A stretch of 44,239 bases of DNA, filler included, from Catajapyx aquilonaris (GCA_000934665.2; 2 parts of 2 records of this genome joined end to end with filler, not necessarily neighbours in it); one strand, 5' to 3'; shown: positions 14,217 through 42,894, numbered from the whole stretch's first letter. Notes: generated from the letters alone by a model not told the origin. Numbers and translations are program-made.

Positions 14217-14257
<41 letters not shown>

Positions 14258-16327: not shown

Positions 16328-17243
16328 GTCTTCATATTGTCGTTCCCAGCTGCCTCATCTCTTCTTCCCTGTACCCAGACGGACAGGTGAAGGAAGTCTC
16401 AATCCGTTGTCCATGTGCCCACTGCCCAGATTTTGCTGCTGTTGGCTGCTGCATGGCAATTGCTTCATATTGTCGTTCCCTGCTGCCTCATCTCTTCTTC
16501 CCTGTACCCAGACGGACAGGTGGAGGAAGACTCTCTTCGTCGTCCATGTGGCCAGATTTGCTGCTGTTGGCTGCCTCCGTGGCAATAAATTGATTCAAAT
16601 TGTCGTTCCCTGCTGCCTCATCTCTTCTTCCCTGTACCCAGACGGACAGGTGGAGGAAGTCTCAATCCGTTGTCCATGTGCCCATTTCCCAGATTTTGCT
16701 GCTGTTGGCTGCTGCATGGCAATTGCTTCATATTGTCGTTCCCTGCTGCCTCATCTCTTCTTCCCTGTACCCAGACGGACAGGTGAAGGAAGACTCAATC
16801 TGTTGTCCATGTGGCCAGATTTTGCTGCTGTTGGCTGCTGCATGGCAATTGCTTCATATTGTCGTTCCCTGCTGCCTCATCTCTTCTTCCCTGTACCCAG
16901 ACGGACAGGTGGAGGAAGTCTCAATCCGTTGTCCATGTGCCCATTTCCCAGATTTTGCTGCTGTTGGCTGCTGCATGGCAATTGCTTCATATTGTCGTTC
17001 CCTGCTGCCTCATCTCTTCTTCCTGTACCCAGACGGACAGGTGGAGGAAGACTCAATCCGTTGTCCATGTGCCCACTGCCCAGATTTTGCTGCTGTTGCC
17101 TGCTGCATGGCAATTGCTTCATATTGTCGTTCCCTGCTGCCTCATCTCTTCTTCCTGTACCCAGACGGACAGGTGAAGGAAGACTCAATCCGTTGCCCAT
17201 GTGGCCAGATTTTGATGCTGTTGGCTGGCTCCATGGCAATTGC
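16328..17243. repeat. Minisatellite, ~7 units of ~126-133 bp
   Basis: Unit TTCATATTGTCGTTCCCTGCTGCCTCATCTCTTCTTCCCTGTACCCAGACGGACAGGT...GCATGGCAATTGC starts at ~16331, 16464, 16595, 16727, 16853, 16986 and 17118. Confidence 0.95.
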
Positions 17244-17489
17244 TGTTGCGGCTGTGGCTGTGGCGCCGGAGGCGGAGGCGGCGTTGGCGGTGGCTGTGTG
17301 GTAAAAAGTGATTCTATGAATCACGTCTGATGCCAAATTTTTCAATGGACCATTTTGCAATGAAATTTCAATGCAAATCAGAGCTACGAGAGGTGATTCA
17401 ATTTGTCTTATTATCATTAGCAGGTTTTGATAACCACTATAGTAGTCTCTATTCGACAGTAACTGCTTAGTAATAAGCATTTGGGATCT

Positions 17490-19200: not shown

Positions 19201-21955
19201 TTAATAATAATAATACAACAACAACAACATCACGACATTTCCCTATGAGGGGTAGTCAGCGATGAAGGGAGACGCAAGCTAACCCAACATATGAACTATA
19301 AAACTCATGATAATAGACCTAAAAACAACCTGTCCCACCCCCCACCCCTGCCCACCTCAGACATCACCTTATCCTCAAACATATTTACCTATTTACCCAT
19401 TAATTAACCTACGCCATTTACACCTATCCAAACAAACAACCTAGCCTCATCCACGTCCATGGTCCTATTGACACAAGAACGTCTTGGCTTAACACTAGCA
19501 ACACCCTTAAGACACTGACCCACCTGGTCCAACCATGTCTTCCTAGGCCTACCCTTGCCCCTCTTACCAACTACTCCACCCAAATAAACCTTCTTCACAA
19601 TCTCCTCCTCCTTCATCCTCTCCACATGGCCAAACCACCTTAGAGTAGACCTACACACCTTATCTTTAACAGTCTCCTTAACATTACACCTCTCCAAAAT
19701 CTCCTCATTCCTAATCCTATCGAACTTGGTAACCCCACAAACAGCCCGGAGATAACGCATCTCTGTAGCCAACACCCTACTCTTATGCCTCTCAGACCAA
19801 ACCCACGCTTCACTACCATACATAAGTGAAGGAACAATAACGTGAGAATAGACAGACAACCTACAGGCAGAAGATAAGTCCTTATTTCTCGAAAACTTAC
19901 TTGTGGCACCTATTACTTTCAACCCAGAACTAACTCTCCTGTCTATTTCCCCATCAATTCTACCATTACTCTCAAGGACACTACCCAGGTATACAAACTG
20001 GTTGACCTGCTCAACCAGTTTTCCTCGTACCTGCAACATACAAGGAGAAACCTGCTGTCCCCTCTCAAATACCAATACCTCAGTCTTATCTACGTTAATC
20101 CTCATGCCCCTCTTTTCACAAACATTATCTAACTTGCCTAGGATCAACTGTAAATCAGCCTCACTCTCCGCCAGAAGGGCAGAATCATCTGCATAAAGCA
20201 AGTGACTAACTAACTCATCCCCAAAACTGCACTCCTACACCTTCAACCATTGCTTCCCTTACACATGCATCTAAGTACAAGTTAAATAACCAGGGAGACA
20301 TGACACAACCCTGCTTAACCCCAACACTAATGTTAAACCAGTCAGAGAAACCCCCACTAGTTCTAACACAAGCTCTACTCTCTTCATACAATGACTTTAC
20401 AGCCTCCAACAGGCGGCCCTTCACTCCATAGAGACTCAGCACCTCCCACAAACCATCCCTACTTACTGTGTCATATGCTTTCTCTAAGTCTACAAAGGCA
20501 ATAAAAACCTTCTTGTTTACAGCTAAATACTTTTCTATCACGAGTCTCATACAGAATATCTGATCTACACAACTCTTACCCGACATAAACCCACTCTGAA
20601 TATTCAGTATTCTCTGACTTGTGGCCCTCTTAACTCTTTCTATCAAAACCTTAGCATACACTTTCCCTGGTACACTTAACAAACTAATGCCACGATAATT
20701 CTTGCAGTCACACACATCTCCCTTACCCTTATACGACTACAGAGGCACTATAATAGCATCCCTCCAATCCCTAGGAACTACACCATTATCAAAAGAAACC
20801 CTACATAAATTAGTCAAAACAGTAACTACATCATCCCCGCCGCACCTCACCATTTCCGAAGAAATAGCATCAACCCCAGGGGATTTACCTAGTTTAAGTC
20901 CTAAAGCAGCAGCTGCAACTTCCTTCTTAACAATATCCCCACAACCATCATTACTTGATACAACATCCCCAATTAAGCTAACAGATACATCTACACTGGC
21001 CTTATCACTTGCTGACAGCAAGTCCTTAAAATACTCTCCCCAGCGCCCTTTCGCCTCTCCTCCATCCCACAGCATGTCACCCTTCTTATCCTTCACACCC
21101 ACTACACTAACCCCATGGCCAGTTCTTAACCTCCTAACAGTCTTCCAAAAAGACTTCTCATCCTCTCCAGGGCCTTCTCCAGCCTCTCACTCTCCTCTAG
21201 ATCTACCTGCTTCTTACTCTCCCTAACAACCCGTGCTGCCTCCCGCTTCCAAAACCTATACTCCCCTGCAGGGACACTACCCTGCAGCATTCCTAAGTAA
21301 GCCTCCTTCTTACGATTAACAGCCTTAGCCACCTCCTCGTTCCACCAACGATCCCCCTTCTTACAACCCACCTTAGCCATACCACAAATATCAACAGCAC
21401 TACTCACTAAGGAGGACTTGAAACAATCCCAACCCTCTTCTAAGGACTTAGCTGTCTTGTTCCCTTCTATCAACCTATCAGAAACTAGCTGTTGATATTC
21501 CAAACCTAATGCTGGAAGTTGCTCAACCTTAATAATCCTCTCAACCACCTCAGGTTTTTTCTTAAACATCCTCCATCCAATACCTAGCCTTAACCTAGAG
21601 ACGACCAGGTAATGGTCGGAACCAACATCTACACCTCTAACCACCTTAGTATCAACTACCTTTGACCTCAACCTATTATCTATCACTACAAAGTCAATCA
21701 AGGACTTCTGACCTAATGACCTATTCTCCCAAGTATACTGATGAATCCGTTTGTGTGGAAACACAGTATTAGACACATACAAGCTCCTCTCTACACATAA
21801 ATCCAATAAACTCACACCATTTCCATTAACCCTGACATCCCCATAACGACCCAACACTCCCTCATACCCCGGGCGAGAGACACCCACCCAAGAATTAAAA
21901 TCCCCTGCAAGAATTATCCTGTCATTACCATTGAACCCATCCAACACAGCACTTA
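19201..21955 (-). mobile_element. RTE-clade non-LTR retrotransposon (APE endonuclease + reverse transcriptase), disrupted, 5' end lost in the gap
   Basis: APE motifs AGDFN, YTW, IDF, GSDH; RT motifs NYRGISLLS, QSGF, FVDLEKAYD, GVKQGCVMSP, YADD; C-terminal LRWFGHVERM and GRPRKTW. Frameshifts near 21165, 20222 and 19435; in-frame TAG at 20737; short 3' UTR ending in (GTT)n(ATT)n. Confidence 0.95.
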
Positions 21956-22055
21956 NNNNNNNNNNNNNNNNNNNNNNNNNNNNNNNNNNNNNNNNNNNNT
22001 TAATTAATTAANNNNNNNNNNNNNNNNNNNNNNNNNNNNNNNNNNNNNNNNNNNN
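21956..22055. other. Assembly gap/linker: 44 N + TTAATTAATTAA + 44 N
   Basis: Exactly 100 positions with a six-frame-stop spacer in the middle; artificial contig join. Confidence 0.95.
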
Positions 22056-23464
22056 AATAAAATTGATTTCCATCCAAAATAAAAAAATATTATGCACACC
22101 TCCAAATACCAGCTTCGTCCGCGCAACCGTCAGCGCCACGCCGTTCTGCCACGTCACATCCGGGGCCCCTCTTCTCTCCCCCTTCCGGACCGGCGTTCTT
22201 TCTCCCAATTTTTGTTCTTTTATTTTTCCCGTTTCACCGGTGTTGAGGGCTTCTGCTTCTCCGCTGACAGCATATTTTGAGAAGGTATGTAATGATTACT
22301 TGGGATGTAATAATCACATGGGAAGATGGGATGTATTAACCACAATTGGATACACAGTCATTGCTGGTGGCGGGACTCTGGGAGGGCTATCCGGATCTGT
22401 TTGGAGTCTCTCTCTAGTTCGATTGGTTTCTCACCCGTGCTCAGCATTCATGACAGCCGCTGATTACGCCGCTGATGACTGTACTCACTAAATTGCTAAA
22501 CCCAGCGGCGTATTAGCTCTGAAATAAGACAACAATGACAACAATTGGCAACTAAAATAATTATTCATTTCAGAGGCGAGAGGCATGAAGGGGCCAAAGC
22601 GATTGGGAGAAGCCAAACCTAAGCTAGCAATCTTTGATTTGGGTAAGTAGTGCAAATCTCTATATAGGATGGCTCTCACGTTTGCACGCATAGGTAATTG
22701 CATTACAATTTTATTGTTGGTTGCCAGGTTGCCAGTGTTGTCAACCAACAATTTTAAAAAATTACCTATGTGTCCAGGCTTTAGGACCTGCATGTATAAT
22801 TGCATAAAATCCTGGCTGCTGCAGACTATATTCAGGGTACAACAACAGTATTGCTCACTGCAAGTTTCACAAACTACTTTCATGCATTTAAGTCACTCAT
22901 GAATTCCCAAACCAAGTGTATGATAATGATTGTATTGGCCTACCAAAAGAACACTACACGAGTGTGGGCTTCATGAGACTTACTAACTGGCCAATCTAAC
23001 TACTGGTTCTAGTTAGGGGTGAATTTTCAACATGGGCTCCGACATTGCAGTCTTCTAAATGCACATGTATGGCAGGTGAAGCCTGAGATGTCCTTCAGGA
23101 ATACTGCCAGATTGTGCAAAGGTTGACATACTAATAAGTCTATACGTATACGTACTTTCTTGTTCAAATATATCAAACAATACTATTTCGATTTCCTACG
23201 CTGTCCTATCCACTGGGACTTCATCTGAATTGACTTTTATAATTTTCTCGTCTTAACTGGCTTAATTAAAAAGTTTAACCCATCGGGGGGAGTTTTAAGA
23301 TATGGTATATTCTTGCAGTTTATGAGATTATATGCTTTGGTACTTTAACATTACTACCGAGAAGTGATCTGATCCTATTAAATTACTTACAGTAAAATCT
23401 AAAGTTGATTTCAATAGCTCCCTGGTTCCTATTTTATAATAACACTATTGCACTTTTCTTTTTG

Positions 23465-23851
23465 TCCCATGTACAAGAGTACATGAATATTCGATTCCTA
23501 TTGTATTTTTTGCTATGATTTCAATTAGCCAATTTCTTATATCACCCACAGTTTTTGAGTAATCGGCATTTTATGGTAGCAATGAACTTCCCGCTTCAAT
23601 GTATATGTAGCACTGATCGACAAACTTGCAATTATTTTGGCGCATGTACATGAATGTGCAATTCCTAAAGTACTCTTTGTCCTGATTTTAAATCCGCTAA
23701 CCATTTTATTCTATCACCTACAGTTTTTGAGTAATTGGCATTTTACAGTAAAAAAGTACTTCATTTTGTATCACTGGTCAACAAAATTAAAATATTTTCG
23801 GCACATGTACATACATACATACATACATACATACATACATACATACATACA

Positions 23852-23882
<31 letters not shown>

Positions 23883-23980
23883 GGGAAAATCATATTGTAT
23901 TATTTGTTCCGATTTCAAATATGTTAACCGATATTTTCTATCACCTACAGTTTTTGAGTAATTGTCATTTTTATGGTATC
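23465..23980. repeat. Three degenerate ~175-bp tandem units; the third contains an (ACAT)n expansion at 23808-23882
   Basis: TATCACCYACAGTTTTTGAGTAATYGKCATTTT at ~23540, ~23712 and ~23939; CATGTACA at ~23468, ~23643 and ~23804. Confidence 0.75.
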
Positions 23981-24183
23981 AAAGTCTCTCTTGATGTAGG
24001 CTAGAGTCATACACTTTGAAATATTTCTCAGTAATGACTAACAGGACCTAGTATGGGCTTAATATGGATTAGTTATGATGCCCCCATTGTAGATATACCA
24101 AAATCCTCATATGGAATCATGTTTACAAAAAATATGCATAAGGTGACAATGAGCAATGTTCAGTAATTCTAGAAAACAAGGTA

Positions 24184-24564
24184 AGGTAAAGTGGGGGAAG
24201 TGTACCCCTGTTTTGTAATAGATCACTTTAAATCATCTATCGCATCCCACCTGTTCCTTGTATCTGAATGAAAATTTTGCCTGCAGTTACTCCTGTCCAT
24301 TACTAAGACACTGTTAGAAGGAGAATGGTTCATAACGAAGTGCTTCAAGGCAGCAACAATCATGCGGAACAATGCATGAGGTGTGCACTTCCCCCGGGCA
24401 CCCGGGGTAAGTGCATCCCCCCCATCCAATTCCTGCATGCAATTATATTTCTGCTGCGATGGGGGCAGTGCGTCATAATCAAAATCAGAGCTAAAACATG
24501 CCATTTACAGAATGATGATATCTCAATTTGTTCAGGAGATACGAACTTCATTGCGTATAACTGC

Positions 24565-24622
<58 letters not shown>

Positions 24623-25197
24623 CCTCCCCATTTTGACATTTGCTGCTTTGGAACTCAGAAGGCTCAGAGTAAGCTAGTGCCAGTAAGTGTAACATGTAAA
24701 GTAAATGTAGCGTAAGTGTAAAATGTAACATTCACACAGAAAATGAACTCAATTATTATGTGGTACATCATGAGTGCACTTACCCCAAGCAGCAGAGGTG
24801 CACTTGCCCCAGCCGTACATTTTCCGGGGGGAAGTGCATACCCCCCCGCCACATTCAATGATTACCCACTTCCATCACTCTTACTGTACATACATATAAT
24901 ACTGTTGAACGCCACCACAACTGTGTAGTAGGGACACTGGGTGATGGAAACTTACCGGAAAAACTCGCTCAGATGTTGCTGGCAGGTATCTCACATCAGG
25001 GGTAGGCAGTGCAGAACTCGCGAAACAGCATGTGCTTCTGGACAAAAAGGGCAGGTAAACCTGCCCTCTTATGCCAGATTACAAGACCATAGTATTCACT
25101 AGTAGAACGATACATGGCGCAGCAATACCTTTCACACATCCCCAGCTAGCAACCAGAGATGCACTTCCCCCGATTGTGCACTTCCCCCACTTTACCT
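24184..25197. mobile_element. Non-autonomous pogo/Tc1-superfamily-like element, ~1 kb, TA TSD; contains (GTAA)n at 24565-24622
   Basis: TA|AGGTAAAGTGGGGGAAGTG ... CACTTCCCCCACTTTACCT|TA; the TIR core TGCACTTCCCCC recurs internally in both orientations. Confidence 0.8.
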
Positions 25198-25513
25198 TAT
25201 ACGATTGTTACAAGAAAATGGATGGCGATATTAAAATTCTGACTTCATATTCACAATCAGCGCCTATACTAATACATGAGAGACACCAAAAATGGTGCCT
25301 TAAACAAAACCCAATGATGCCCAATAAATTAATAATATTGAGCTATGCAAAGTAGGCCTTCTCTCGGGATAGTCAGGCATGTTACAGGAAAATGGATACC
25401 GATAGAAATATTTTGACTTCAAATTCAAACTCAGCGCATTCTAATACACAATAAAAATTGAAAATGGCTCATTTAACAAAACCATCGTTGACCATTAATT
25501 TTATTAGCCACAT

Positions 25514-25879
25514 CAGGGAGCACATACTACATAAGAGGCGCAAACATTCGATTTCCGCGTCTCTCTGTTTGGGGCGTTGCCAAGGCTGGCGGCCATTTTG
25601 AAGTGTGGGCAAATCCAACGAGGTATAAATAGGGTACGTACAGCAAAAATAGGGTCCGCCATCTTTGATTCGCGCGTGTTCTTGCCGTGTAGTTGCCATG
25701 GCCGCCAAAACCATCAAAGATAGCGGATCCTGTTTTTGCCTGTATCCTATTTATACCTCGTTGGCGTTGCCCACACTTCAAAATGGCCGCCAGCCTTGGC
25801 AACGGCCCCAAACAGAGAGACTCAGAAATCAATGGCGCAGATCGAAGTTTGCGCCTCTTATGTTAGTATATGCTCCCTG
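25514..25879. mobile_element. 366-bp foldback MITE with 7-bp TSD GCCACAT (P-like)
   Basis: GCCACAT|CAGGGAGCACATACTACATAAGAGGCGCAAAC ... GTTTGCGCCTCTTATGTTAGTATATGCTCCCTG|GCCACAT. Confidence 0.85.
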
Positions 25880-26156
25880 GCCACATTGAGCAACATTTGT
25901 GCAGTGTACTTTCCCCAAAATAACGTACGGCTGTTACAAAAAAAAATGGGGGGTGGTGGAAACTTTCTGACTTCATATTCGGAATCAGCGCACATGAATG
26001 CATTAGAAACAGCTAAAATTGTTCATGAGCCAAAAACCTTGTTGACTAGTGTAATCTATCACTGATCTCCTTCTGACTGAACAATTGGGCGCCTCGAAAA
26101 AAAAAATATTCGAAAGTTGTAGTTCACTAGTGAAAAGAAGTTGTGTTGGGCGATCC

Positions 26157-27688
26157 CAGGCCTATGACACTCCTCGAATACGGTAGGTTAACTCCTGTGT
26201 CCTGGCCAGACGGCGCTGATGGCGGAAAATGGCGGATGTCCCTCCACCAGTGTCTGCCGCCATCTTGAAGGCCCATTCCGGTTGGCCGGCAAGTCAATCT
26301 GCCTGCGGGTGGGTGCCAAAAAAAACATGCCGAAAAATAAGTACGGTACTGCTCGGAACTGCTAGCTATCTTTAGTCACGTCTAAATAAAATAAATGGTA
26401 CACTTACAATGCTCGGTAAATGTGCAGAAAGCATTCTGGGACACACCAAAAATGTCAAGGGAGCAGGAGGTGATTGTAAAAGAGCATTGTAAGTGTACTA
26501 ATTATTTTATTTAGACATGACTAAAGATAGCTAGCAGTACCGAGCAGTACCGTACTTATTTTTCGGCATGTTTTTTTTTGGCACCCACCCGCAGGCAGAT
26601 TGACTTGCCAGCCAACCGGAATGGGCCTTCAAGATGGCGGCAGACACTGGAGGGACATCCGCCATTTTCCGCCATCAGCGCCGTCTGGCCAGGACCAAAG
26701 AGCTTAATACTAGGAAGAGTGGAAAAAACGGTTTCCAAGCGTCGCCACTTTTTGGCCAGTTGTTTAGTCAACGTGCTTGGCTGACGACCACTACGCGGCG
26801 CCACTAGGCGGCACCGTCGAGTGCTGTCGAGAGGAATTTCAATAAACTGTGTTGATTTAATATCAAGAGCCACATAATTAAGAGTTATAAATCTAAAAAC
26901 TGACCAATATGAGGTCGTATGCGGTTAAGGCACTAATTTTGGACCCGAAACCGATATTCGACGCAGCTTGCCACCCTGCACCTAACAATCCAAATAATCA
27001 CCGATCGTTGCTTAGAAATCACGTTCGAATTTTGAAATAGAACAAGTTCCAAGGCCGGCATAGTGGGGCGTAGACGGTCGGGGGTTGGGTGCCGAGTGCT
27101 ACTACTGCTGTTCGCGCACGGGGTCTCGGATCGCATTCTTTTCATTACCAAAGGACCCTCCACGGCTCTCGAGTTCACGGTAGAAGAACAACAAGCCCGT
27201 CCCGCCACAAGATGGACATAGCAGCGGGGGGTATATTTTCCTGTCATGACCATGCTCAGCATCATGACCAGTGTGTACAGTAGCCTACCGTGGTGTGTAT
27301 TGTAGAGCGCAGAGTGTGGGATTATTGTAGTGGCAATAAACTTCTGGCAAACAATTTGCTTTTCGTGATGGTATTTTATTCACAGGTCTTCTACATCGTG
27401 TTTTGTCGTCAATTTTTACACCAACGAGAGTATACGAGTGCTTATAGCTTATTTCCAACCTCTGGGGCTTTTATTGCCATATTTCCGGCACTGCCTCGAT
27501 CTACCGTATTGTACAATACAGTGTCGAGTTTGGCTGTCGATCGCCAGGTGGCAGGTCAGTCGATTGGAGACACGGTTGCTATGCTACCAGCTGTTTTTTC
27601 CACTCTTCCTAGTATTAAGCTCTTTGGCCAGGACACAGGAGTTAACCTACCGTCATCATACATGTAGGTGGGCTGTGTCAGGGGGCTG
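26157..27688. mobile_element. Foldback MITE with 8-bp TSD GGCGATCC (hAT/P-like), interrupted by 26696-27626
   Basis: GGCGATCC|CAGGCCTATGACAC ... GTGTCAGGGGGCTG|GGCGATCC; near-perfect arms 26181-26394 vs 26502-26695 + 27635-27652. Confidence 0.8.
26696..27626. mobile_element. Non-autonomous P-element-like transposon, 931 bp, ~34-bp TIR, 8-bp TSD GCCAGGAC
   Basis: GCCAGGAC|CAAAGAGCTTAATACTAGGAAGAGTGGAAAAAAC ... GTTTTTTCCACTCTTCCTAGTATTAAGCTCTTTG|GCCAGGAC; possible THAP remnant (AFFSLPKDPPR) at ~27133-27165. Confidence 0.8.
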
Positions 27689-28629
27689 GGCGATCCTTTT
27701 GACGGGTAAAAAATCTGAGTCATGTGGGTTAATACCCTGAGGCTCCGCCAGGGGCGTAAGGGACGCAACTTCCGGGTTTTCGCTTCTTGGTGTGCGAGTA
27801 CACTTATCCGGCTTAAAAATGAAAGGTTGTGGCCATTTGGGGTGAAATGTCGTTATTTTTGCGATATCTTGTATCGTTGACGAGATATTGATCAAAAACA
27901 CAGGTCCAAAAATTACACAGAGAAACGAAATTGTTGTTGTTGTTTTTTTGTACCTTGAAGGTTAGACCGATGTTAGAGCATATCTGTGGCACTGATTCCA
28001 AAACTGGCATCCGTTTTGCCCCATCAGATCAGGTTTTTGAGATATATCGCTTTAAAGTTTGGACCGGTTTACTATAGGGTCTTCCCTAATCAAGTGAGCC
28101 GAAATGTTTTTAGACTTAGATGATCTCGGATCTTGGTGAAAATAATCACAGATGTACAGACTTATGACATAATGCTGCATATCAAGTTTCAGCCACATTG
28201 CGCAATACCATTGGGAGCTAAGAAATCGAGAATCTTTGAAAATGGCCGTGTCTGAACAAGTGACCAATGAAATGTACAAACAAATTTTTGTTACATTTAA
28301 GAGAAAAACTAATTCCATCAGCGCATTATCCTGGTATTTCTCTTTCTTTTGATATATATGTTCATTGGGTTTTTATCAATTCCACTAACCGAAAAAAGTT
28401 CTACAAATAAGGGCTCATTTTCGGCCATTTTCAATGTTTCTCGATTTTTCCCCCTCCCAATGATATTGCGCAATGTGGCTGAAACTTGATATGCAGCATT
28501 ATGGCATATGTCTGATTGTCTGTACATCTGTGATTATTTTCACCAACATCCGAGATCATCTAAAAAGATTTCGGCTCACTTGATTCGGAAAGACCCCTAG
28601 TAAACCGGTATAAACTTTAAAACGATATA

Positions 28630-28883
28630 TCTATATAAATAATGCCGTTTGTGAGTCTGTCTGTCTGTCCGCCTGCCAACCGGTGTTGGGACTTGGGACT
28701 ACAGATGGCAGGCAAATGACGGTTGCCGTTATACAGGCGGGAGAGGTTGAAGGTGTTGGAGTAGCAGGACCACAGATGGCATTGGTGGGCGGACACACAG
28801 AAAGACAGACAGTTGACGGGGCTACTGGCAGGAGTTTTCCCTTCATTCATTTCTTTCCGGGCAACGCCGGGTGCCGCAGCTAG
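28630..28883 (+). mobile_element. Non-autonomous Helitron, 254 bp
   Basis: A|TCTATATAAATAAT 5' end, (GTCT)n tract, subterminal hairpin CCGGGCAACGCCGG, 3' CTAG|T, no TSD; removing it restores the host foldback arm. Confidence 0.85.
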
Positions 28884-30565
28884 TATCAAATACTAGAGCT
28901 GATGGAGCAAAATGGATGCCAGTTTCGGAATCAGCGCCAGAGATATGCCCTAAAATCGGTCTAACCTTCAAGACACCCCAAAAAAATTTAATTTTGTTCC
29001 CCCTGTGTAATTTTTGGACCTGTGTTTTTGGTCAATATCTCGTCAACGGTGACTCAGGATATTAACCCACATGACTCAGATTTTTTACAAGTCAAAAGGA
29101 TCACCCAACACAACTTTTTTTTTTTCACTAGCGAACTGCAACTGCAACTTCCACTTCGACCCAGGGTCCCCTACATGGTTGCCTCCCCCACCCTAACCAG
29201 GGTATTGTCTCCACGTAGTCCTTATGGGGCGTCCATAATGGAGCTAGATTGCATGCTGGAGGATAGGAAATTGGCAAGCGTCCAATTTTTTTTTTTCAAT
29301 GACATTTTTTCACTGCATGCAGATCCCATCTGATTTAGATCCGATATGTCGGAGAGACAATACCCTGTCTAGGTTAGAGAGGCACTCATGGAGGTTACCC
29401 TGCTTCGACCAACTCAGCTTGGAGGCTCACTGCTATCTCCCTTTCCACCACCTATCCCCCTCCCAGGAAACCTTGGGTGGGATCCGTCATGCATTGGGCT
29501 GGTGAAATAGTATTAACAGGATTGGGTAATGAAAGACAAGGTTGAAGGTAATGTGCAGGTGCTTACATGGCCGTTTGGCCACCTGGGCACATCATATTGT
29601 GACACCTAAAGTTTAAGGTCGCAAACCTAATTGCTATTTTTAATTGGCGCCAAACCTGGTAGCACCTTGAGAATGAGATGGCTCGTCTCTGTATTTCATA
29701 TATTTTGTGTGTAGTGCCCAAATGAAGTTATTTTCAATTTCACATATTCATTACCTAGGTCCTACCTACATTAGCTATAGGGCTGGACTCTTATGAATTT
29801 GAAAGGGGTCTAACAGTTGTTACAAGATGCTAGTGCTTTGCTCGGCAAATAATAATTGAATGCCACAATGCAATAAGGGCCCATCTGTCAATTTTTACGG
29901 AAATGCTTTTATGGCATATTGTATACTTCCTCTGGTCCATCCGTATAAAATACAAGAAGAGCCGAAATGTCACTAGTAATGCCTGAAAAAGGCTTCTAAC
30001 CAGCGACGGACCAAAAACACGATTTCTCTATAGCAGTGACAATACTGACAAACGTGATTGTCATTTGAAAAGCGCGATTTTAATACATTACAAGTGACCC
30101 GCGATTTGAAAATAACGGTGATTTTTAGCGCGACGTGATTTTTGTCTCATAGCTACTTCTGAAGGCGATGCGTTACTTTACCATTTAGAACGTTCCCCTC
30201 TGAGGAGAAGTGCTAAACCTAGTGGAAAACGAAAAGAAAGTAGACTTGTGGGTCTACTCTCTACTGTATATGTCACCAAAAAATCTTTGACCTACGCCCT
30301 CGGAAAGTGGTCAAAAATGGCTGCTACTTTATGATCAGGTAGACCTATGTGGCATGGGAGACCAAAAAACATTAAATTTAATTAAATATAATGTGCAATT
30401 ACTCTGAAGCGAATAATGTGTCTCCTGCATATCATAATATTCATTCTTTTTACCTTGAGACGGTTTATTTCTCCATATTTAAGCCAAAGGAATGATATAC
30501 ATTGCAATAAGGGCCCAAACGCCCAATTGTGAGCATTAATGGTATTTAAATAAAATATAAATTAC

Positions 30566-30593
30566 ATGGGCATTTCAATGAAAGTGCTGTCAG
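30566..30593 (+). CDS. Tentative first coding exon (MGISMKVLS-G) of the MDP-1-like gene
   Basis: ATG at 30566 and 30578 in frame; CAG|gtattc donor in phase 1 matches the phase-1 acceptor at 32776 and completes a signal-peptide-like N-terminus. The intron is only ~180 bp once the SINE and Tigger insertions are removed. Confidence 0.4.
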
Positions 30594-30618
30594 GTATTCA
30601 TGTTGTAGATATCTGTCA

Positions 30619-30670
<52 letters not shown>

Positions 30671-30751
30671 GATACCCCGTGACAAGCCTCCTTGGGCTTT
30701 TTAGGGGATCATCTTTTTTAATTAACCGTCTTTAATCATTGCCTTTGCTGT
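30619..30751 (-). mobile_element. 5'-truncated SINE 3' end with (ATT)n tail
   Basis: Reverse complement of 31268-31353, followed by ~17 ATT units. Confidence 0.75.
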
Positions 30752-31199
30752 TATCTGTCATTAGGTTTAGAGCACAATTGCCTACCGTGAACAGAAACAG
30801 AAATACAGTAAAACTTCTATAAGTCGAACTTCCCTAAGTCGAATTTCTACAACTCGAATTTCTCCATAACTCGAAGTGCAGGCAGGGCCTTACGATGGGA
30901 TATCAATGCATTTTCAGTCTCCCTATAAGTCGAAGTTCATGTTGGCGAGTACGTAAAATTGTCTCATTTCCCAGCCGAAGGGTCGAGAGTCGGCCACATG
31001 TACAGAAAGACTCTTTCCTGATATCCGTCTACCAGACGTACCGAAAGAAGTGTTTGACTCGATTGTGAGGAACATTGTAAGTACTAGCGCACCCGTAGCC
31101 AAAATTTGGCAAAACCTGCAATGAGGAAGACAATGGAAATGAAAAAAATTGAATGAGATGGCTCGCTACGGGTGCGCTAGTGTGGCTATAGTTTCGATG

Positions 31200-31353
31200 G
31201 GTTCTCTCCGTGTTCGCGTGGGTTTTCTCGGGGGTTCTCCCGTTTCCTCTCACAATCAAAATCCATCACAGCAAAGGCAATGATTAAAGTCGGTCAATTA
31301 AAAGATGATCCCCTAAAAATCTCAAGGAGGCTTATCACGGGGTATCCATTATC
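31200..31353 (+). mobile_element. SINE fragment with V-domain-like core
   Basis: GTTCTCTCCGTGTTCGCGTGGGTTTTCTCGGGGTTCTCCCGTTTCCTCTCACA resembles the recalled V-SINE central domain; 3' end shared with 30619-30751. Confidence 0.65.
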
Positions 31354-32352
31354 TCCACTGTCATCTGTTGTGGCCCCGCCAGGCAGGGTTCGTCGCCCTG
31401 CAGGATATTTTTAGGTAATGCGGAGAGGAAGCGGAGCTGGGCGATTATTGTGGGTTTCGTATCCGCAACATTTACAGTACTGTCCGTCTTGTGGCGGTGG
31501 AGGCCAACGGACGTTATTGTGGCTTTGCCAACCTCCAATCCCCTGCTGATCCCACCGCTGATATCTTGTTTGCTTGCTCCGGGAGGTTCATGCTACGCCG
31601 CCAAATAAGTCGCAATGGTTTACTCTAAGCTAAGCTATCCGCTGAAAATGATAATAAGTTGCTACAGTAGATCTGGATCCAAGATGGCGGCATAGTTAGA
31701 AAGTGGGGCTGAAAGTAGCAGCGTATATGACAGCTTTCTGAATATGGGGGTGGCGACATGAGAAGCTCAGCGTAGGTGGCAGCACTGGGCTTGAGGCCTC
31801 AGCAGATATGAGCGCCAAAATACAGGTTGGAGTAAATGGAGGTTTCTCTTTACTGAGTGACAAGCATTTCGACTAAATCTCGCGGAGCATTGTGGCTGAC
31901 ACGGTTATAAGTATACATTAATATATAACCTGCATAATATCCATCCGTGCAGTAATCCTCTTCCAAAAAGTGATCCCGGCACACCCGCGGGACGCTGATG
32001 TACACACAAAATTCGCTCTTTTTTTATAGCTGCCAACCACTTGGAGCACTTTATCCCTGGGGAATCGGTCCCCCCCCCTTCTTACTGCACCAGTAGGCCA
32101 CACACGTAGTCGGCATTTTGTTTTACAAAGTGTAAATGCGATGAGCGAGTCAATACAAAGCACATTGCCAGCAGCCATGTCCTTGGTTTACAGCCCCAAG
32201 CCCCCTAGCGCTCCAGCGGCCAAAAGTAGCTGTCGCCACCCCCATTCTGAGGCTCAGATTGAATCAGTTGGCAGACCTGTATTGGCGGGAAAGGAAATAG
32301 GTGGCGGTTAGGACTTTTGGCGGGAAGGGAAAGCGGCGGCCTGATGACGAAT

Positions 32353-32444
32353 TAGTGCCGTACTGACCAAAAGGTGGAAGCACTCCCTTGGCCACCGCCA
32401 AAGGCCGCCAAGGGAGTGCTGCCACCTTTTTCGTCACGGCACTA
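32353..32444. mobile_element. 92-bp hairpin mini-element with TAG...CTA ends
   Basis: TAGTGCCGT..AAAAGGTGGAAGCACTCCCTTGGC pairs with GCCAAGGGAGTGCTGCCACCTTTT..ACGGCACTA. Confidence 0.65.
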
Positions 32445-32775
32445 CTTCTTCAGGCAGCAACATCTGGCGTTCCAGACAATGCTATTATTATGGGGACGAT
32501 GATAGTGACAGTTATTTTTAAGTTATGAACACCTTTCGCCGCTGGATATAAAGGTAATAGGCTTCCTTGCAGAGTAATGTGCTTTAAAAAATCCAAACTT
32601 CTCTAACTCGAATCTTCTATAACTCGACGTTTTTTTCCGGTCCCATGGAGATTCGACATATAGAAGTTTTACTGTAAATAGTTTTTTTCGCTTCCTGGAC
32701 ATTTTCAATTTTCACAATTGGACCCTGATTGAATTGTGGTCCTCAATTATAAGCTTTTGCTTTTCGGAAATTTAG

Positions 32776-32896
32776 GTATTGTTTTTTTTGTACTTTTGAT
32801 TATATTCCTTCGAATAAGGAGGGCGCACAGTATTAACGAGTGTATCGAGTGCAAGGGGCCCGGGGGGCATACCCCTCATTTCACAGATATAGGCAG
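32776..32896 (+). CDS. MDP-1-like gene exon: hydrophobic leader and N-terminal segment
   Basis: tttag|GT acceptor; reads (G)IVFFVLLIIFLRIRRAHSINECIECKGPGGHTPHFTDIG(R); CAG|gtggat donor in phase 2 matches the next exon; HTPHF aligns with MDP-1 HVDPPF. Confidence 0.6.
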
Positions 32897-33353
32897 GTGG
32901 ATACGCCAATACGAATAACATACTTACCATTGAACATCTCAATTCAATAAGGTGGGAAAACATAAAAATAATGTTCAGGAAACGAACAAAACTCTTTATT
33001 TCTGTCCGATCATATAGTTAACAAAATTTTGAAAGCCTGCTTCAGGCGCTTCTAGTGACATTTCAGCTCTTGCAATCTCGACCGATGGGTATTCACCAAA
33101 ATAAAGACAATACTACACACTAATTTATTCAATATTGATGTATTCTTCACTTGCGTATATTGTTGAATTATAAGTTTCAACCCGGCAATAATTATGTTCG
33201 AAGTGAATGACCATTCGTTCTATTATTTCAGAAAAAACGCTGTTTGATTTTGCTATCACTGAAGTATTCCCACCTCTCACCTACATCCGGTAAGGCAATA
33301 AATGCATATTTAGTATGAAAACTCAGAAACTTACCTCCCTCTACCTTTTTCAG

Positions 33354-33593
33354 GCCAAATGTCCTTAGAGACGATCTTGCCTGTACCTTCAAAGCATACC
33401 CTGGAGCAACAGAGGTAATGGAATACCTGCACGACACGGACATCCAAATAGGGATCATCCATGACACATGGGGAGATTGCGACGAACATGATGACATGCA
33501 CACTCACCCATGGCTTACCCACATATTGAAGTGGGATCAGTACATAACCCATGCGGCTATATACCCAGAAAATAAAGATCACTTGCTCCTAAG
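33354..33593 (+). CDS. MDP-1-like (HAD-superfamily) gene, central exon
   Basis: ctctaccttttttcag-type acceptor, AAG|gtaggg donor, 240 nt open: PNVLRDDLACTFKAYPGATEVMEYLHDTDIQIGIIHDTWGDCDEHDDMHTHPWLTHILKWDQYITHAAIYPENKDHLLL(R). Collinear with recalled MDP-1 VRD..LYPEVPEVL...RYFVHREIYPGSK. Confidence 0.85.
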
Positions 33594-33827
33594 GTAGGGT
33601 ATAGATTGTCTTGTATGGTTTTTGGACACGAAATGAGACTAAAGTAGAAGACTATATTTGAGTATGAAACAAAATTAATATGAGGGGTCTCGTGGGGTAC
33701 CTAACTCGTAAAAATTATCCTCTTCCACCTCGTCCTCTTCTTCCCCCGCGCCCGCCTCTGCCCACACCCCCCTCAAATAGAAACAAGATTGGCAAATCAT
33801 GTGAGCGTGATTAGAACAGACTACTCA

Positions 33828-36367
33828 TAGTGCAGTCATTTTAGACCAAAATGTTGGCGTCAGGTAAAAAAATCCTTACAAGCAAGAGATTTGGTGTATG
33901 TGTAGTATTTGATCACCCTTGTAACATACTAAAAGTCCTCGGAAATCCATGCTGTGCGACGGCCGCCATCTTGAAAAATGGCGGCCGAAATCCAATTTTT
34001 CACTCTTATCTCGGAAAATACACATGTTATTAAAATGTTTTTTAAACAAAAAATGTTTGCTATGCAATTGCCCATAAAATCTATTCTTATCATTATTTTG
34101 ATAAACCTTGCCATTATGCCAGAAATCTAATTTCCTTTGTTCAATATATGTCGAAAAATGGGATTTCAGCCGCCATTTTCCAAGATGGGCATTTTTCAAG
34201 ATGTGGGTGTGGGTGTAGGTTTATCAACAGGACTGGTAGGTGACATATATCAGTAACTTGTGACAAAGCGAGAGAGAAGGGAGAAGAATCAATGGAGGAA
34301 ATGAAAGGGAAAACCTTTGGCACGCTTACAATACAAAGGAAATACAAAGTGAAACCGCTTGCAGGGGTTAGTTCTGCTATCCGGCTAGGAGACGATTCTG
34401 TTGTTGTTAACACCCAGCAGGTTTTTAACAGGATTATATGTGTTGAGAGAGAACCACATAAGCTAAAGGAGTATTTTACGTTTGAGCATGCACCAAGGCC
34501 TCCTTCCTTATTTGAGGATGTATCACAAAGGAAAGAAGTGAAATCTTCTTTGGTAAAAGCATTCCAAGTCGAGGAGTTCCCACACATTCCTGAGAACTGT
34601 GCGTACATTATAGACGGTGAGCATCTCCTGCACCGTGTAGTATGGCCCCGACCTGACGATTGTTATCCAATCTTAATACGGGAGCAACTGCGTGGTGGTT
34701 TTCGATGGATACCCTGATTATCCTACAACCAAATGCTGTGAACAGCAACGAAGAGCTGCCAGAAGAACCTCTGCTGCAATTGATCCATAAGAAAATACAG
34801 AAACGATAACAATGCAGGCTGAGTTCTTAGCAAACAGAAGAAACGAAAAAATCCATAGAACTGCTTTCAAGACATTGCCTGTCATCAAATATACAGGTGA
34901 GGTTAGCAGAATCAGATGCTGATACCCTGATTGTTTCAACAGCATTAGAGAGGTAAATTGCAGGAAATGAAGCTATTGCAAAAGGACAGTTTCCTGAGGG
35001 AAGGCAGGAAAGTTTTTAACGATCCTTCTTCAACCAAAAGAAGAGGTAGCTGCTGCAGGAGAAGACTTTTTACTTCGCTTATATGGATTATCAAGAAGTA
35101 ATACCTTATATGCTTTGCGCTACTACAGATCGCCTACCATCTTCTAAATATCCAAACAGCCAGTCGGCAAAACGTTGACCTCGCATCTCTGCCTCCAACT
35201 AGTGATGCTGCAGGACAACATTCATACCGGGCGTATCTACAAGTTCAGAATTGGAAAGGTAACAGGATGAACCCTTCTGACTAGGGGTGGATACTAAAGA
35301 GAGACAGTTTCACACTCGTGTCTATGACAAAAAAAAAAAAAAACGCTCCGCAGGAATTGTTAACGCTAACATCGTGTACCTGTAAAATCAACTCTGCCAA
35401 CAGATGTAAATGTAGAAAATCTGGAATGAAGTGCTCGACTATGTGTAGAGAGTGTCAAGGACTATATCCTGCATGAATTCCGAAGATGTTCAATCCGATG
35501 AAGATGATGATAATGTCTAGTAGGCCTACTTGTGTATATTGCAAGTAGAGTCTTTTCTTTTTCGCTGAACTATTATACTATATCTGGCATAATGGCAAGG
35601 TTTATCAAAAGAAGGCTAAGAATAAATGATGTGGGCAACTGCACAGCAAACATTTTTGTTTAAAAACATGTATAGTTTCCGAGATAAGTGTGAAATATGC
35701 TGGGATTTAGGCTGCCATTTTCCAAGGTGGCGGCCGTCCCACAGCCTTGATTTTCGAGGATTTTTACTATGTTACAAGGGTGATCAAATACTACACATAT
35801 ACCAAATATCTCGCTTGTAAGGATTTTTTAATACCTCATTTTCATAAAATGACTGCATCACTATTTGGCCAGCATAATGTAGCCATGGGCCACGTTATAA
35901 TATTATTTTATATTATAATAACCCTTACAAGCAAGAGATTTGGTAGCCTATGTGTAGTATTTGATCACCCTTGTAACATACTAAAAGTCCTCGAAATCAA
36001 TGCTGTGTGACGGCCACCATCTTGGAAAGTGGCGGCCGAAATCCCATTTTTCGACATATATTGAACAAAGGAAATTAGATTTCTGGCATAATAGCAAGGT
36101 TTATAAAAATAATGATAAGAATAGATTTTATGGGCATTTGCATAGCAAACATTTTTTGTTGAAAAGACATTTTGATAACATGTGTATTTTTCGAGATAAG
36201 AGTGAAAAATTGGATTTCGGCCGCCATTTTTCAAGATGGCGGCCGTCGCACAGCATGGATTTCCGAGGACTTTTAGTATGTTACAAGGGTGATCAAATAC
36301 TACACATACACCAAATCTTTTGCTTGTAAGGATTTTTTTACCTAATTTTCATAAAATGACTGCACTA
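33828..36367. mobile_element. Academ (AcademX-type) DNA transposon, internally deleted and composite, 3-bp TSD TCA
   Basis: TCA|TAGTGCAGTCATTTTA ... TAAAATGACTGCACTA|TCA; ~350-bp TIRs; TAG..CTA ends; decayed nuclease and Cys-rich coding region. Confidence 0.8.
34250..35520 (+). pseudogene. Decayed C-terminal part of an Academ-type protein (XPG/PIN-like nuclease + Cys-rich finger)
   Basis: FTFEHAPRPPSLF, YIIDGEHLLHRVVWP, EFLANRRN, LASLPPTSDAAGQHSYRAYLQVQNW...GW...APQELL...CTCK...CKCRKSGMKCSTMCREC; many frameshifts and stops. Confidence 0.8.
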
Positions 36368-37162
36368 TCATTCTTTCAATATAATGAAACTTATGGGTAA
36401 TTTCTCCCCAAATAAAGTAACATTGACGAGCAAGTAAATCAAGTTTAATAGTAGGCCTATACTAAATTTACACATTGTTACAAAAGATTATTACAGTAGA
36501 ACCCCTATTATCCGTCACGGGACTGGGACATTGCATTGCTCTGAAACTCTGAAGTAGGCGTATACGTGTAGAGTGAACCCGGAATTAAACCGGAAGTGGC
36601 GGGTCTCCAGAAGTTGACCATGACACGTATTTAAGTCACGCTTAATCCGAATATGAAAACTGTTTGTCGCTATCTTTTACGGTTGAGGCCCTGATACCTG
36701 TCCACAGACGGACAGACAGAAAGACAGACAGAGTCGTTCTATAAGACTTTTTTCGATGATGATAAAAAGTCTAAAAGTCCAGTGATGCCCATTACTCTCT
36801 ACTCTCCCATAATAATAGGATATCCACTTCCTACAGACATGTGTCTTCTTAGCAAATCAGCTTTTCAGCACCCGACTTTATTCTAAATTAAACTGATGCT
36901 AGGCCCACATTTGAATGCAAAACAACTCCTAGAAAACGGCTCAGCTGAAGAGATTCCATCGGAACTTCTAAAATAGGGAGAATATTCGAACAAGGGACCT
37001 CTCGGAAGTGGAATGGGTATGGGTATACCTTATTATCAATGGCTTTTCAACTCAACAACAGTTAATCAAAAACATTTCACTTGGTCTCATATCGTGTCAT
37101 TTCGAATCCTCTTATAAGTAGGAACTTATTCAATAGTGTCCTAAATATTTTCCCTGCTATAG

Positions 37163-37337
37163 GATCATCGATGACGCCACGTACCCAGCCAAAGACATGA
37201 TCTATTTTGACAGCACCCTGGACGGAACCAATCACGCCGAATCTGTGGGAATAATGCCCTTCTTGGTAGAAGGGGGGATCTCGATGTCGGCCCTAGACTT
37301 TGCCCTAGATGAATTCGCCGTGAAAAGGGCTGCCTAA
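37163..37337 (+). CDS. MDP-1-like gene, terminal coding exon
   Basis: ttttccctgctatag|G acceptor in phase 2; reads IIDDATYPAKDMIYFDSTLDGTNHAESVGIMPFLVEGGISMSALDFALDEFAVKRAA*. Collinear with recalled MDP-1 TGIPFSQMIFFDDE...LGV...GMNLQTLSQGLETF. Confidence 0.85.
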
Positions 37338-37543
37338 CCAGCTTCTGACCTACCACCTGCTACCACTTGTTCTTGTTTGTGTTTTTGTTGCATTTCAGTC
37401 CTTGGTGTGTGGCATGTCGAGGATCTCAGGGGCTCCTGGCAGGACCAGGGGGCCAAATCCTGGCTCCGGCATGGACTTTGACGTAACGGGTTGAGCACGG
37501 ACCAGGACTGCCGCATCAAGGCTCACATGTTCGCTAAATTGTA

Positions 37544-37618
37544 AATAAATTTCAATCGCCTTGTTGTTAGTATTAAATTAATCGTTCCCAAGCTAATGAA
37601 CTACTAATTATAAATAAA
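37544..37618 (+). terminator. Candidate polyadenylation signals for the MDP-1-like gene
   Basis: AATAAA at ~37544 and ~37613 and ATTAAA at ~37572, 200-280 nt after the stop codon. Confidence 0.4.
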
Positions 37619-37682
37619 AAATTTAATTCCCCATGAAAATAGCTTTACTGGTCCAAAAAAAGGAATTCCAAAAGTCTACCTA

Positions 37683-38403
37683 GTGGCCATATCAGGAACA
37701 AGTGCACATGATATGGCCACCCTTGTTCCATGTTCTACAAATCGTGATTTTTTCCAGTTTCATAGTCCAGTTCTGCTGAAATTAAATGATTTTGGTGTGA
37801 AATCAATAAACATGATACGAAATAATCCTTTTTGTTATTCGAAAGTGGATTCAAAACAGGAATTTCCCTTAAAAATGAGGTTGTTTGCAAACTTGACATG
37901 ACAATTTCTTTCAAAAACCAAAATGTGACATTATTCAAGAGAAGAGTACAAGACGAAAATGAGATTGTTAAAACAAATTACTGTTCGTAATTGGGACAAA
38001 TATAAATGTCTTTGTCAGTAGCAGTGACTGGGTGGCCATATCAGGAGCAGGTCAGCTTTTACGAAAATCGTTTTATTATGAACAACTCGTAAAACATACG
38101 CCATCAACGACAACACCAATCGAAAGAGCATTAAAAACTTAATAGCGTACGATGGTTTTCATGAAAAATGTATTTTAAAAACATGCATAAAACAAAGGAG
38201 ACGTACCTGAGAAAAACAAGAGGTCACACGAAAAACACGAAGCAGGCAACTGACGCCACATGGCTCAAACCTGGGTGGATGGTAAATGATCAAGTGACAC
38301 CACTTGGAGGCGCCCTCACTGGCTGCTGATGCCATATAGCGGATAACTCCCAATAGCGGGATGACCATATCAGGAACATGGCCATATCCGGGACATCCAC
38401 CTT
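37683..38403. mobile_element. DNA-transposon fragment with a repeated subterminal motif
   Basis: TGGCCATATCAGGA(A)C-like motif at ~37685, ~38034, ~38362, ~38378 and inverted at ~37710; only one plausible end (CCACCT|TA). Confidence 0.45.
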
Positions 38404-39344: not shown

Positions 39345-39423
<79 letters not shown>

Positions 39424-39480
39424 TTATTACCCCATTGGGATTTACCATATCCTTTAGGGGGGTGGATTACCACCATCGAA
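39345..39480 (-). repeat. (ATT)n microsatellite adjoining a retroposon 3' fragment
   Basis: ~26 ATT units, then TTAGGGGGGTGGATTACCACCAT shared with ~5912-5935. Confidence 0.7.
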
Positions 39481-41049: not shown

Positions 41050-41145
41050 TGTATCCATCATACTGGCTATAACCAATGTAGCAATCATACTAGCTATATT
41101 CGTTATATCAGCCATACTATTAGGCTACATTACATTAGCTATATA

Positions 41146-42024
41146 CAGGGTGTTGCAAGTTCGTGGGTCACTTTTCTTATGACCAAATTTGGTATACCGT
41201 CGTAATAAAGGTACCCCCCGACGAAGAAACTGCGTGGGGCGTTCGAAGACACTTCCGTGGTCGCTCAGAACTCTCCCGCCGAAAATGTACCCGGACCAAA
41301 AGTGACCAGTATAGTGTCCAAGTGAAGATTTCCCCACTACAAAAGCGACTGCAAGTCACTTGCGGGACCCCTCAACCTGCCTGCAACTTGTGGCTGCAAG
41401 TCTGCAATCTGCAGGCCGACTTGCAGCCTGCAAGGGTGTTCGTTTTCGCGCCCTCCCGCAAACCGCAGGTAACCCAGGTAACGTAAACACTTTGGCGGCT
41501 GCAACTTTCCAGGCGGGCGTTCATTTTGCAGCCCTTAGTCTATCGGAAATTGCCACCCGAAATGAAGCCAGAGATGGCCCAACTCTGCACGGATCAAGGT
41601 GGGAACCCAGGGTGGGGATCGAACCTGAGACCTTAGGACTGCAAAATGAACGCCCCCCTGGAAAGTTGCAGCCGCCAAAGTGTTTACATTACCTTGGTTA
41701 CCTGCGGTTTGCGGGAGGGAGCGAAAACGAACACCCTTGCAGGTTGCAAGTCGGCCTGCAGATTGCAGACTTGCAGCCACAAGTTGCAGGCAGGTTGAGG
41801 GGTCCCGCAAGTGACTTGCAGTCGGTTTTGTAGTGGGGAAATCTTCACTTGGACACTGTACTGATCACTTTTGGTCCGGGTACATTTTCGGCGGGAGAGT
41901 TCTGAGCTACCACGGAAGTGTCTTCGAACGCCCCACGCAGTGTCTTCGTCGTGGGGTACCTTTATTACGACGGTATACCAAATTTGGTGATAAGAAAAGT
42001 GACCCACGAACTTGCAACACCCTG
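41146..42024. mobile_element. Mariner-type foldback at the palindrome core, enclosing a CACTAC...GTAGTG module (41335-41835) with CTGCAA/TTGCAG repeats
   Basis: TA|CAGGGTGTTGCAAGTTCGTGGG ... CCCACGAACTTGCAACACCCTG|TA; a diverged fragment of the core occurs at ~39575-39750. Confidence 0.7.
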
Positions 42025-42894
42025 TATATAGCTAATGTAATAATAGTATGGTTGATATTACGAATATAGCTAGTATGATTGCTATATTGGTTATAGCAGG
42101 TTATAGCCAGTATGATGGATACACAGGGTGTTCGAAATTCGTGGCTCGTTTATATATTAGTTATTATTTGTAGCTTGTTGTGCCCCTAACCAGATGGCCC
42201 ATTCTATAGCAACTCGACTCCCTGGGAGTAAAATGGAGCACAACAAGCCACAAAAATAACTACTATTGGGTGATATCAGTTATAAAAACCTACCCACGAA
42301 TTTCGAACACCCTGTATAACCAATAAACCTGTATGACAATATAACTGAGTTATATTGGTTATTATGGTAGTTGCATGTTACGCACATTGGTTATAATTAA
42401 CTTGTATGATGTAACCAGTATGTCTGATATAACCATTATAACAACAGTAGTATGACAGTTATATTAGTTATAACTAATATGACTAACATAGCCAATGTAA
42501 CTATGGGGTTATGATAGTAATATATTGGTTATAACTAGTATGTGTGATGTAACCAATATAACTACTATGGAATAACTGATATCACAATGCAGTTTCTCAC
42601 CAAATATCAGGCAAAAAATCTGGAGCTTGTTCCTATCAGTTATTATAGCTACCTCTAAATATACTGTCTGCCAAAATAGCCGCGTTAAAACTCGCAACCC
42701 GGGTCTGAATAATCCTATATATTGTTATAACTTGGTGGGACCAAATTGTATCAAAATATTGTGCTTTATCTTTGACTGGACCACTGACAATGGATGACGA
42801 TGAAAAATAAATTGTGACCATGTACATTATTGGGCTGTCATTGGATGGCGGGCGGCTCTGGACCATAATATATTCTGTGATATATGAAAGATAT

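Follow-up and report, generated by a model that had tools for sequence, protein, structure and literature searches.

A stretch of 44,239 nucleotides (nt) from Catajapyx aquilonaris (GCA_000934665.2; two parts of two records of this genome, joined end to end with filler and not necessarily neighbours in it), in the following called the window, contains on its + strand between positions 33207 and 37337 a candidate gene related to MDP-1 (magnesium-dependent phosphatase 1), a small phosphatase of the HAD type. The best explanation of this locus, which we consider probable, is an expressed three-exon gene derived from MDP-1, with a weakened active site and without a signal peptide. Its exons (33207-33289, 33354-33593 and 37163-37337) join to 498 nt or 165 codons without an internal stop, and we have good confidence that this three-exon structure is right. 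The locus would then be a compact + strand gene, transcribed and spliced as in the model, for a cap-less protein of the cytosolic type that belongs to the MDP-1/Acid_PPase derivatives of the HAD family. If the structure is accepted, an expressed gene is to be favoured over a silent relic. An initial annotation had proposed at this place a hidden spliced gene of MDP-1 ancestry coding for a poor or dead enzyme, and this core idea probably stands. However, its model started with two other exons much further upstream, and its product was supposed to be redirected to secretion or to a membrane. The elements of the three-exon model are the following:

33169-33174, + strand: TATAAG, a TATA-like hexamer 38 nt before the ATG, read directly
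33207-33289, + strand: first coding exon, 83 nt, ATG at 33207, phase-2 donor CCG/GTAAGG, encodes MTIRSIISEKTLFDFAITEVFPPLTYI
33290-33353, + strand: intron 1, 64 nt, GT..AG, pyrimidine-rich 3' end cctccctctacctttttcag, G+C content (GC) 0.34
33354-33593, + strand: second coding exon (exon 3 of the initial annotation), 240 nt, from the flap region to motif III, donor AAG/GTAGGG
33594-37162, + strand: intron 2, 3569 nt, GC 0.39
37163-37337, + strand: last coding exon (exon 4 of the initial annotation), 175 nt, motif IV and C-terminal helix region, TAA at 37335-37337
37544-37549, + strand: AATAAA, a poly(A)-signal-like hexamer 207 nt after the stop, read directly

Evidence for the three-exon model

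The family assignment comes from the two downstream exons, each scored singly. The last exon matches the Pfam family Acid_PPase (PF12689) with an E-value of 8.7e-4 and 19.6 bits, its residues 7-52 lying on positions 122-167 of the 169 profile positions. This match, which the initial annotation had expected for the HAD/MDP-1 family, ends 2 positions short of the end of the profile, and the reading frame stops 5 residues past it. Exon 33354-33593 matches HAD_2 over profile positions 77-103 of 178, which are the positions leading into motif II, with an E-value of 0.12 for the whole exon and of 0.036-0.042 for its first 32-40 residues. As a control, 150 stop-to-stop frames of at least 24 residues were taken from the + strand of 23013-33594; when the frame of exon 33354-33593 was left aside, none of the remaining 149 showed a Pfam match to a HAD family, and the best chance matches had E-values of 0.0028 and 0.003.

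The splice sites of the two exons rank high among the 738 AG and 681 GT sites between 25000 and 38000. Exon 33354-33593 has an acceptor at the 99.9th and a donor at the 99.4th percentile, and the acceptor of the last exon is at the 96.9th. Both exons are single-copy within the window. In a language-model atlas, HAD-type clusters are among the look-alikes of both exons (0.81-0.86 for exon 33354-33593); since all named matches score below 0.9, these are leads only. An AlphaFold2 model of exon 33354-33593 alone had a mean predicted local distance difference test score of 44.7, which is too low for use, and co-folding of the three exon peptides as separate chains gave a score of 0.02, which speaks neither for nor against the model. 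From the sequence evidence we conclude that exons 33354-33593 and 37163-37337 are more than chance and that they encode the C-terminal two thirds of a putative HAD protein resembling MDP-1.

The first exon was found by enumerating all in-frame upstream exons able to join position 33354. It does so in the required phase across an intron of 64 nt, which has the sequence CTTAC approximately 20 nt ahead of its acceptor, and an in-frame TGA lies immediately 5' of the ATG at 33207. Its donor ranks third among the 2253 GT sites on the + strand of the whole window, and that of exon 33354-33593 ranks ninth. There are 36 ATG-initial candidates with a donor at least as good as that of the second exon of the initial annotation; exon 33207-33289 is the nearest and, with a score of 5.9, the best of the 36. 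The TATAAG hexamer could mark a promoter immediately 5' of the proposed first exon; this hint is weak, and the hexamer may be a chance occurrence, because the surrounding DNA is AT-rich.

What makes this exon attractive is its content, since it encodes a degenerate HAD motif I, F-D14-F-A16-I-T18, after a short hydrophobic lead-in. With the pattern [LIVMFT][LIVMF][LIVMF]DxxxTx[LIVMFW] it is the sole match in the 88474 residues of the six-frame translation of the window, where the plain pattern FD...T occurs 9 times. A canonical DxDx[TS] with a hydrophobic lead-in is found in none of the six frames. Eight loose D.D.[TS] matches were considered as motif I and rejected, as they lie in repeats or in stop-ridden contexts. 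The initial annotation had held that the DxD region and with it the nucleophile are absent from this gene. Instead, a motif-I-like exon lies between the second and the third of its exons, and the nucleophilic aspartate is present in FDFAIT. At the sequence level, there exists to a large extent what that annotation had named as evidence against itself, namely a different upstream motif-I exon that can be joined to 33354, although the motif of this exon reads DxAxT and not DxDxT.

The joined model has the expected dimensions of the family: 165 residues compared to a profile length of 169, in a small single domain without a cap. The PF12689 match occupies residues 115-160 of the model against profile positions 122-167, an offset of 7, while in the four-exon model it occupied residues 137-182. 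When the exons were shuffled internally, only 6 of 20000 shuffles stayed stop-free. The coding sequence has a GC of 0.47 and a GC at third codon positions (GC3) of 0.54, as compared to 0.34 and 0.39 in the two introns.

One could object that there is no gene at all and that two open frames resemble HAD proteins by chance. Both single matches are indeed weak, with E-values (8.7e-4 and 0.12) below the gathering level, E-values of about 0.003 arise by chance among 150 frames, and no homologue was found in protein searches. Nevertheless, we regard this as highly improbable. The motifs come in the right sequence, I, II/III and IV, on three colinear pieces of a single strand. The splice sites that join these pieces are top-ranked and compatible in phase, and the model starts with an ATG and ends at the end of the profile. 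None of the 149 control frames matches a HAD family.

There are also several points that weigh against the three-exon gene as we propose it. The PF12689 support comes from one exon, scored singly, with 19.6 bits against a gathering score of 27 bits; neither exon 33354-33593 nor the first exon matches PF12689 when scored in this way. The 27-residue peptide of the first exon alone has no match in Pfam and none in the PDB. The ranking of splice sites was done with a rough consensus matrix, which is suited for ranking alone. The ATG at 33207 has a T at position -3, and an out-of-frame ATG at 33194-33196, 13 nt upstream, opens a short frame of approximately 17 codons which runs across the proposed start. 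If the acceptor at 33232 were used, the first exon would become an internal one that is fed from upstream. The phase of the first exon of the initial annotation (30566-30593) would fit this acceptor, and such a join would alter just the first 9 residues and would not create a hydrophobic leader. Moreover, word-index protein searches with exon 33354-33593 (longer proteins) and with the last exon (longer proteins and proteins of near length) returned no close relatives, and the loss of three catalytic positions would also look like the early decay of an unused gene.

The proposed upstream leader exons

The four-exon model of the initial annotation begins with two exons that we do not retain:

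30566-30593, + strand: exon 1 of the initial annotation, 28 nt; 30566-30592 translates to MGISMKVLS
32776-32896, + strand: exon 2 of the initial annotation; 32778-32894 translates to IVFFVLLIIFLRIRRAHSINECIECKGPGGHTPHFTDIG

As a reading of exons and frame, this model is correct. Joined by their coordinates, the four exons give 564 nt or 187 codons with a terminal stop; an AG precedes exons 2-4 and a GT follows exons 1-3. Exon-wise translation gives a 79-residue piece from 33355-33591 and a 57-residue piece up to the stop at 37337, so that exons, GT-AG borders, phases and the frame of 187 residues are all as described. The exon Pfam matches and the reading of the motifs also bear out that a spliced gene is present here which a plain track of open reading frames (ORFs) does not reveal, and that it has degenerate motifs and belongs to the MDP-1/Acid_PPase branch of the HAD family.

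The part that does not hold is the signal-peptide-like leader. According to this idea, the product is an MDP-1 derivative that lacks motif I and is secreted or bound to a membrane, and 30566-30593 and 32776-32896 form a leader joined to 33354. The join is open and obeys the GT-AG rule, and exon 2 has an acceptor at approximately the 97th and a donor at approximately the 96th percentile of the local sites (25000-38000). However, an enumeration of the 32 kb upstream of 33354 yielded 683 ATG-to-GT segments and 4523 open AG-to-GT segments that can be joined to it in frame, and in 12 internal segments both splice sites are at least as good as those of exon 2. Exons 1 and 2 have the open join to speak for them, such joins number thousands, and the join is therefore not evidence by itself. 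Among the 2253 GT sites of the + strand, the donor of exon 2 ranks 90th and that of exon 1 ranks 221st; inside its own intron, the leader model passes over a motif-I exon whose donor is far stronger. In the Pfam scan, exon 2 has no family match. Exon 1 ends 25 nt before an (AAT)17 microsatellite.

The hydrophobic run of the leader, from which the idea of a signal peptide arose, comprises approximately 12 residues with a mean Kyte-Doolittle value of 3.1. The underlying DNA consists to 60% of T, compared to 28% T window-wide, and 26 non-overlapping 12-mers of equal or higher hydrophobicity are found in the six frames of the window. Directly after the run follows R-I-R-R, which would be odd for a cleaved signal and might rather fit a membrane anchor that keeps the domain cytosolic. 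Since a better first exon adjoins the conserved part of the gene, the leader is most probably a spurious translation of T-rich DNA, and exons 1 and 2 are most likely fortuitous open frames in intergenic or upstream sequence rich in T. We therefore judge the secreted or membrane-bound form to be very unlikely as the product of this locus, exons 1 and 2 being no better than chance and the motif-I exon being nearer. The leader form could also exist as a minor, membrane-anchored second isoform that starts from an upstream promoter.

Active site, relatives and the possibility of a relic

According to PMC8069645, strand 1 of HAD phosphatases ends in motif I, DxDx(T/V), with the nucleophilic aspartate and, two residues further, the aspartate acting as general acid/base. 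Motif II is described there as a serine or threonine at the end of strand 2, motif III as a lysine and motif IV as a pair of acidic residues (DD or DxxxD) binding Mg2+ (PMC8069645). In the 165-residue model, the nucleophile D14 and T18 of motif I are present, but the second aspartate is replaced by A16, and the sequence departs from DxDx(T/V). At the putative place of motif II, I-G-I-I is followed by H-D-T, with a histidine at the expected Ser/Thr position and a threonine two residues further; the HAD_2 match ends within the I-G-I-I run (profile positions 101-103). Motif III reads Y-P-E-N-K with K102, which we take to be the motif III lysine on the basis of IYPGSK in MDP-1 and of the spacing. 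Motif IV reads Y-F-D-S-T and lies inside the PF12689 match; D124 is followed by a serine, so that there is one acidic residue and not two. The motifs of MDP-1 itself are given here as general background.

Three of the six catalytic positions are thus changed (the second aspartate of motif I, Ser/Thr of motif II and the second acidic residue of motif IV). The initial annotation had likewise seen the lysine of YPENK kept, HDT in the place of motif II and YFDST as motif IV. Its view of a weakened or dead phosphatase is still a fair reading, given a motif I of the form DxAxT in place of DxDxT; what does not stand is the absence of the nucleophile. The model has an acidic composition (19 Asp, 9 Glu, 6 Lys, 5 Arg and 9 His), and many of the histidines are found in a short His/Asp/Cys-rich insert after motif II.

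On the proposed mechanism, the HAD scaffold would still bind a phosphoryl group and, weakly, Mg2+, and D14 may take the phosphoryl group from activated substrates. Protonation of the leaving group and hydrolysis of the intermediate would be inefficient. The product might then be a very slow phosphatase at best. Either it would be a pseudo-phosphatase that binds or regulates, or an enzyme that acts on activated substrates and no others. We infer a very slow enzyme or a binder. A more specific proposal is that of a selected, lineage-specific MDP-1 derivative without turnover, which has kept the phosphate-accepting aspartate, the lysine and one Mg ligand, has lost the general acid/base and has gained the His/Asp/Cys-rich loop. 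Such a derivative would trap or sense phosphorylated proteins, for instance glycated and phosphorylated ones, or regulate by metal binding. We consider this specific form unlikely.

The search for relatives beyond Pfam gave little. In a HMMER search of 1.84 billion representatives, exon 33354-33593 had three matches with E ≤ 0.001, in proteins of 506-949 residues. Two of the three aligned in six short stretches each to the His/Asp-rich part. From the match pattern alone, all three were taken as compositional and were not accepted as relatives. A single metagenome locus was rejected as spurious, as the match lies off any ORF and opposite an ORF for a bacterial membrane protein. None of the three exon peptides matched NCBIfam, and sequence searches of the PDB with exons 33354-33593 and 37163-37337 and with the first exon gave E-values above 1 or no match.

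This high divergence, together with an intact frame, intact splice sites and intact start and end, argues for a constraint on the sequence that is still acting or ceased not long ago. That three catalytic positions are lost would fit either a new function or early decay. It is therefore necessary to weigh the possibility that the locus is a silent relic, that is, an unexpressed paralogue with eroding motifs whose frame is still open because the constraint was lost recently. Half of the catalytic positions are changed, no relative is detectable by sequence, the locus lies in repeat-rich DNA and carries a transposon in an intron, and the start context is weak, with another ATG upstream. These points speak for a relic. 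Yet no family member appears at E ≤ 0.001 among 1.84 billion representatives, and in spite of this distance the 165 codons, the GT-AG borders, the top-ranked donors and the position of the stop are intact. After long neutral decay the frame should no longer be intact, considering how few shuffles (6/20000) stay open, and an exon GC3 of 0.54 against an intron GC of 0.34-0.39 looks coding. A silent relic is in our estimate unlikely, even if it is the alternative to be taken most seriously, and we keep to the expressed three-exon gene with a weakened active site.

Intron 2 carries a transposon-like insertion:

~33827-36368, within intron 2: transposon-like insertion with long terminal inverted repeats

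Its inverted arms (33862-34188 and 36017-36343) are 327 nt long and 97% complementary. BLAST extends them to 33827-34188 and 36017-36368, which gives arms of 327-362 nt overall with a complementarity of 94-97%. The insertion holds further partial internal copies at 35580-35857 and 35703-35829, and six internal + strand frames scanned within 34244-35473 have no Pfam match at E ≤ 0.01.

The window is otherwise repeat-rich animal DNA. On the - strand, a remnant of the long interspersed nuclear element type at 19404-22007 shows RVT_1 (E 7e-23 and 3e-7) and endonuclease/exonuclease/phosphatase domains in at least four frames, and it adjoins runs of N at approximately 21956 and 22012. There is a direct segmental duplication of several kb, 727-8268 versus 10000-15585, with approximately 96% identity in pieces of 405-3549 nt, and a further 612-nt copy is found at 1-612, 3537-4140 and 12367-12970. 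At 16330-17244 there is a tandem array with a repeat unit of 133 nt (7 copies, 89% matches) or 263 nt, and in several reading frames its repeats give rise to long open stretches of up to 348 codons. Just ahead of this array lies another, of 21/42/63 nt (16163-16327). Microsatellites are (AAT)17 at 30619-30669 and (TAT)28 at 39345-39429. Right where (AAT)17 ends, a 90-nt inverted repeat pair begins (30665-30754 and 31265-31352; 91% identity, approximately 510 nt apart), which has the look of a miniature inverted-repeat transposable element. Finally, two frames of 115 codons at 41139-41486 (+) and 41684-42031 (-) have a near-identical translation, which suggests that approximately 350 nt are duplicated as a foldback or in inverted orientation, with a spacer of approximately 200 nt.

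Comparison with known HAD proteins

If the three-exon model is true, the locus represents an unannotated and very divergent gene of the MDP-1 type with replacements at half of its catalytic residues. A confirmed and conserved case could serve as a small but useful example of the way cap-less HAD enzymes become binders, and a protein without turnover, if real, would be the first pseudo-enzyme of the MDP-1 branch. In a narrow search of the open-access literature, which is no proof of absence, no pseudo-phosphatase of this branch was found described, and to our knowledge HAD pseudo-phosphatases have been little studied in general. The secretion or membrane leader, which had carried most of the interest of the finding, was not upheld, and as the evidence stands we regard the case as an ordinary one and not as a surprise. 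The practical gain is a corrected gene model. It comes with a caution, since T-rich DNA readily yields apparent signal peptides by chance, and GT-AG joins without a stop arise just as readily.

The closest known system is MDP-1 itself, which is reportedly the protein-fructosamine-6-phosphatase of Fortpied and co-workers (2006, cited in PMC7828646). Like MDP-1 (PF12689), the putative product of the locus is one small, cap-less domain of about the same length (165 residues versus 169 profile positions), its motifs I-IV follow in the same order, its C-terminal third matches the profile to its end, and the lysine of Y-P-x-x-K as well as the nucleophilic aspartate are kept. It differs from MDP-1 in motif I (D-F-A-I-T, with alanine in place of the acid/base aspartate), in the histidine at the motif II place, in motif IV, which has D-S and not two acidic residues, and in the extra His/Asp/Cys-rich stretch after motif II. 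In addition, it is so divergent that searches with single sequences find no member of the family. MDP-1 is classified in PMC8069645 as a C0 HAD protein acting on macromolecular substrates.

A change of the second aspartate in motif I is present in other branches of the HAD family as well. Phosphonoacetaldehyde hydrolase has an alanine at this position and the P-type ATPases have a threonine, and it is also altered or missing in non-catalytic FCP1-like domains such as that of Tim50. HAD branches with a changed acid/base residue perform another chemistry or have lost phosphatase turnover. These proteins share with the locus that the HAD scaffold is kept while the acid/base position is changed; in contrast to it, they belong to other HAD branches and possess caps or extra domains.

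The 38K protein of arthropod-infecting viruses belongs, by its description, to the same HAD branch as an offshoot restricted to one lineage, as the gene studied here would be. However, 38K keeps DxD, S, K and DD, it is viral and it is approximately twice as long, whereas introns, a host-type structure and degenerate motifs set the predicted gene apart from this description. Because the second aspartate of motif I and the second acidic residue of motif IV are missing, the predicted protein is not a bona fide MDP-1, and we file it as a putative MDP-1-like variant with a degenerate active site.

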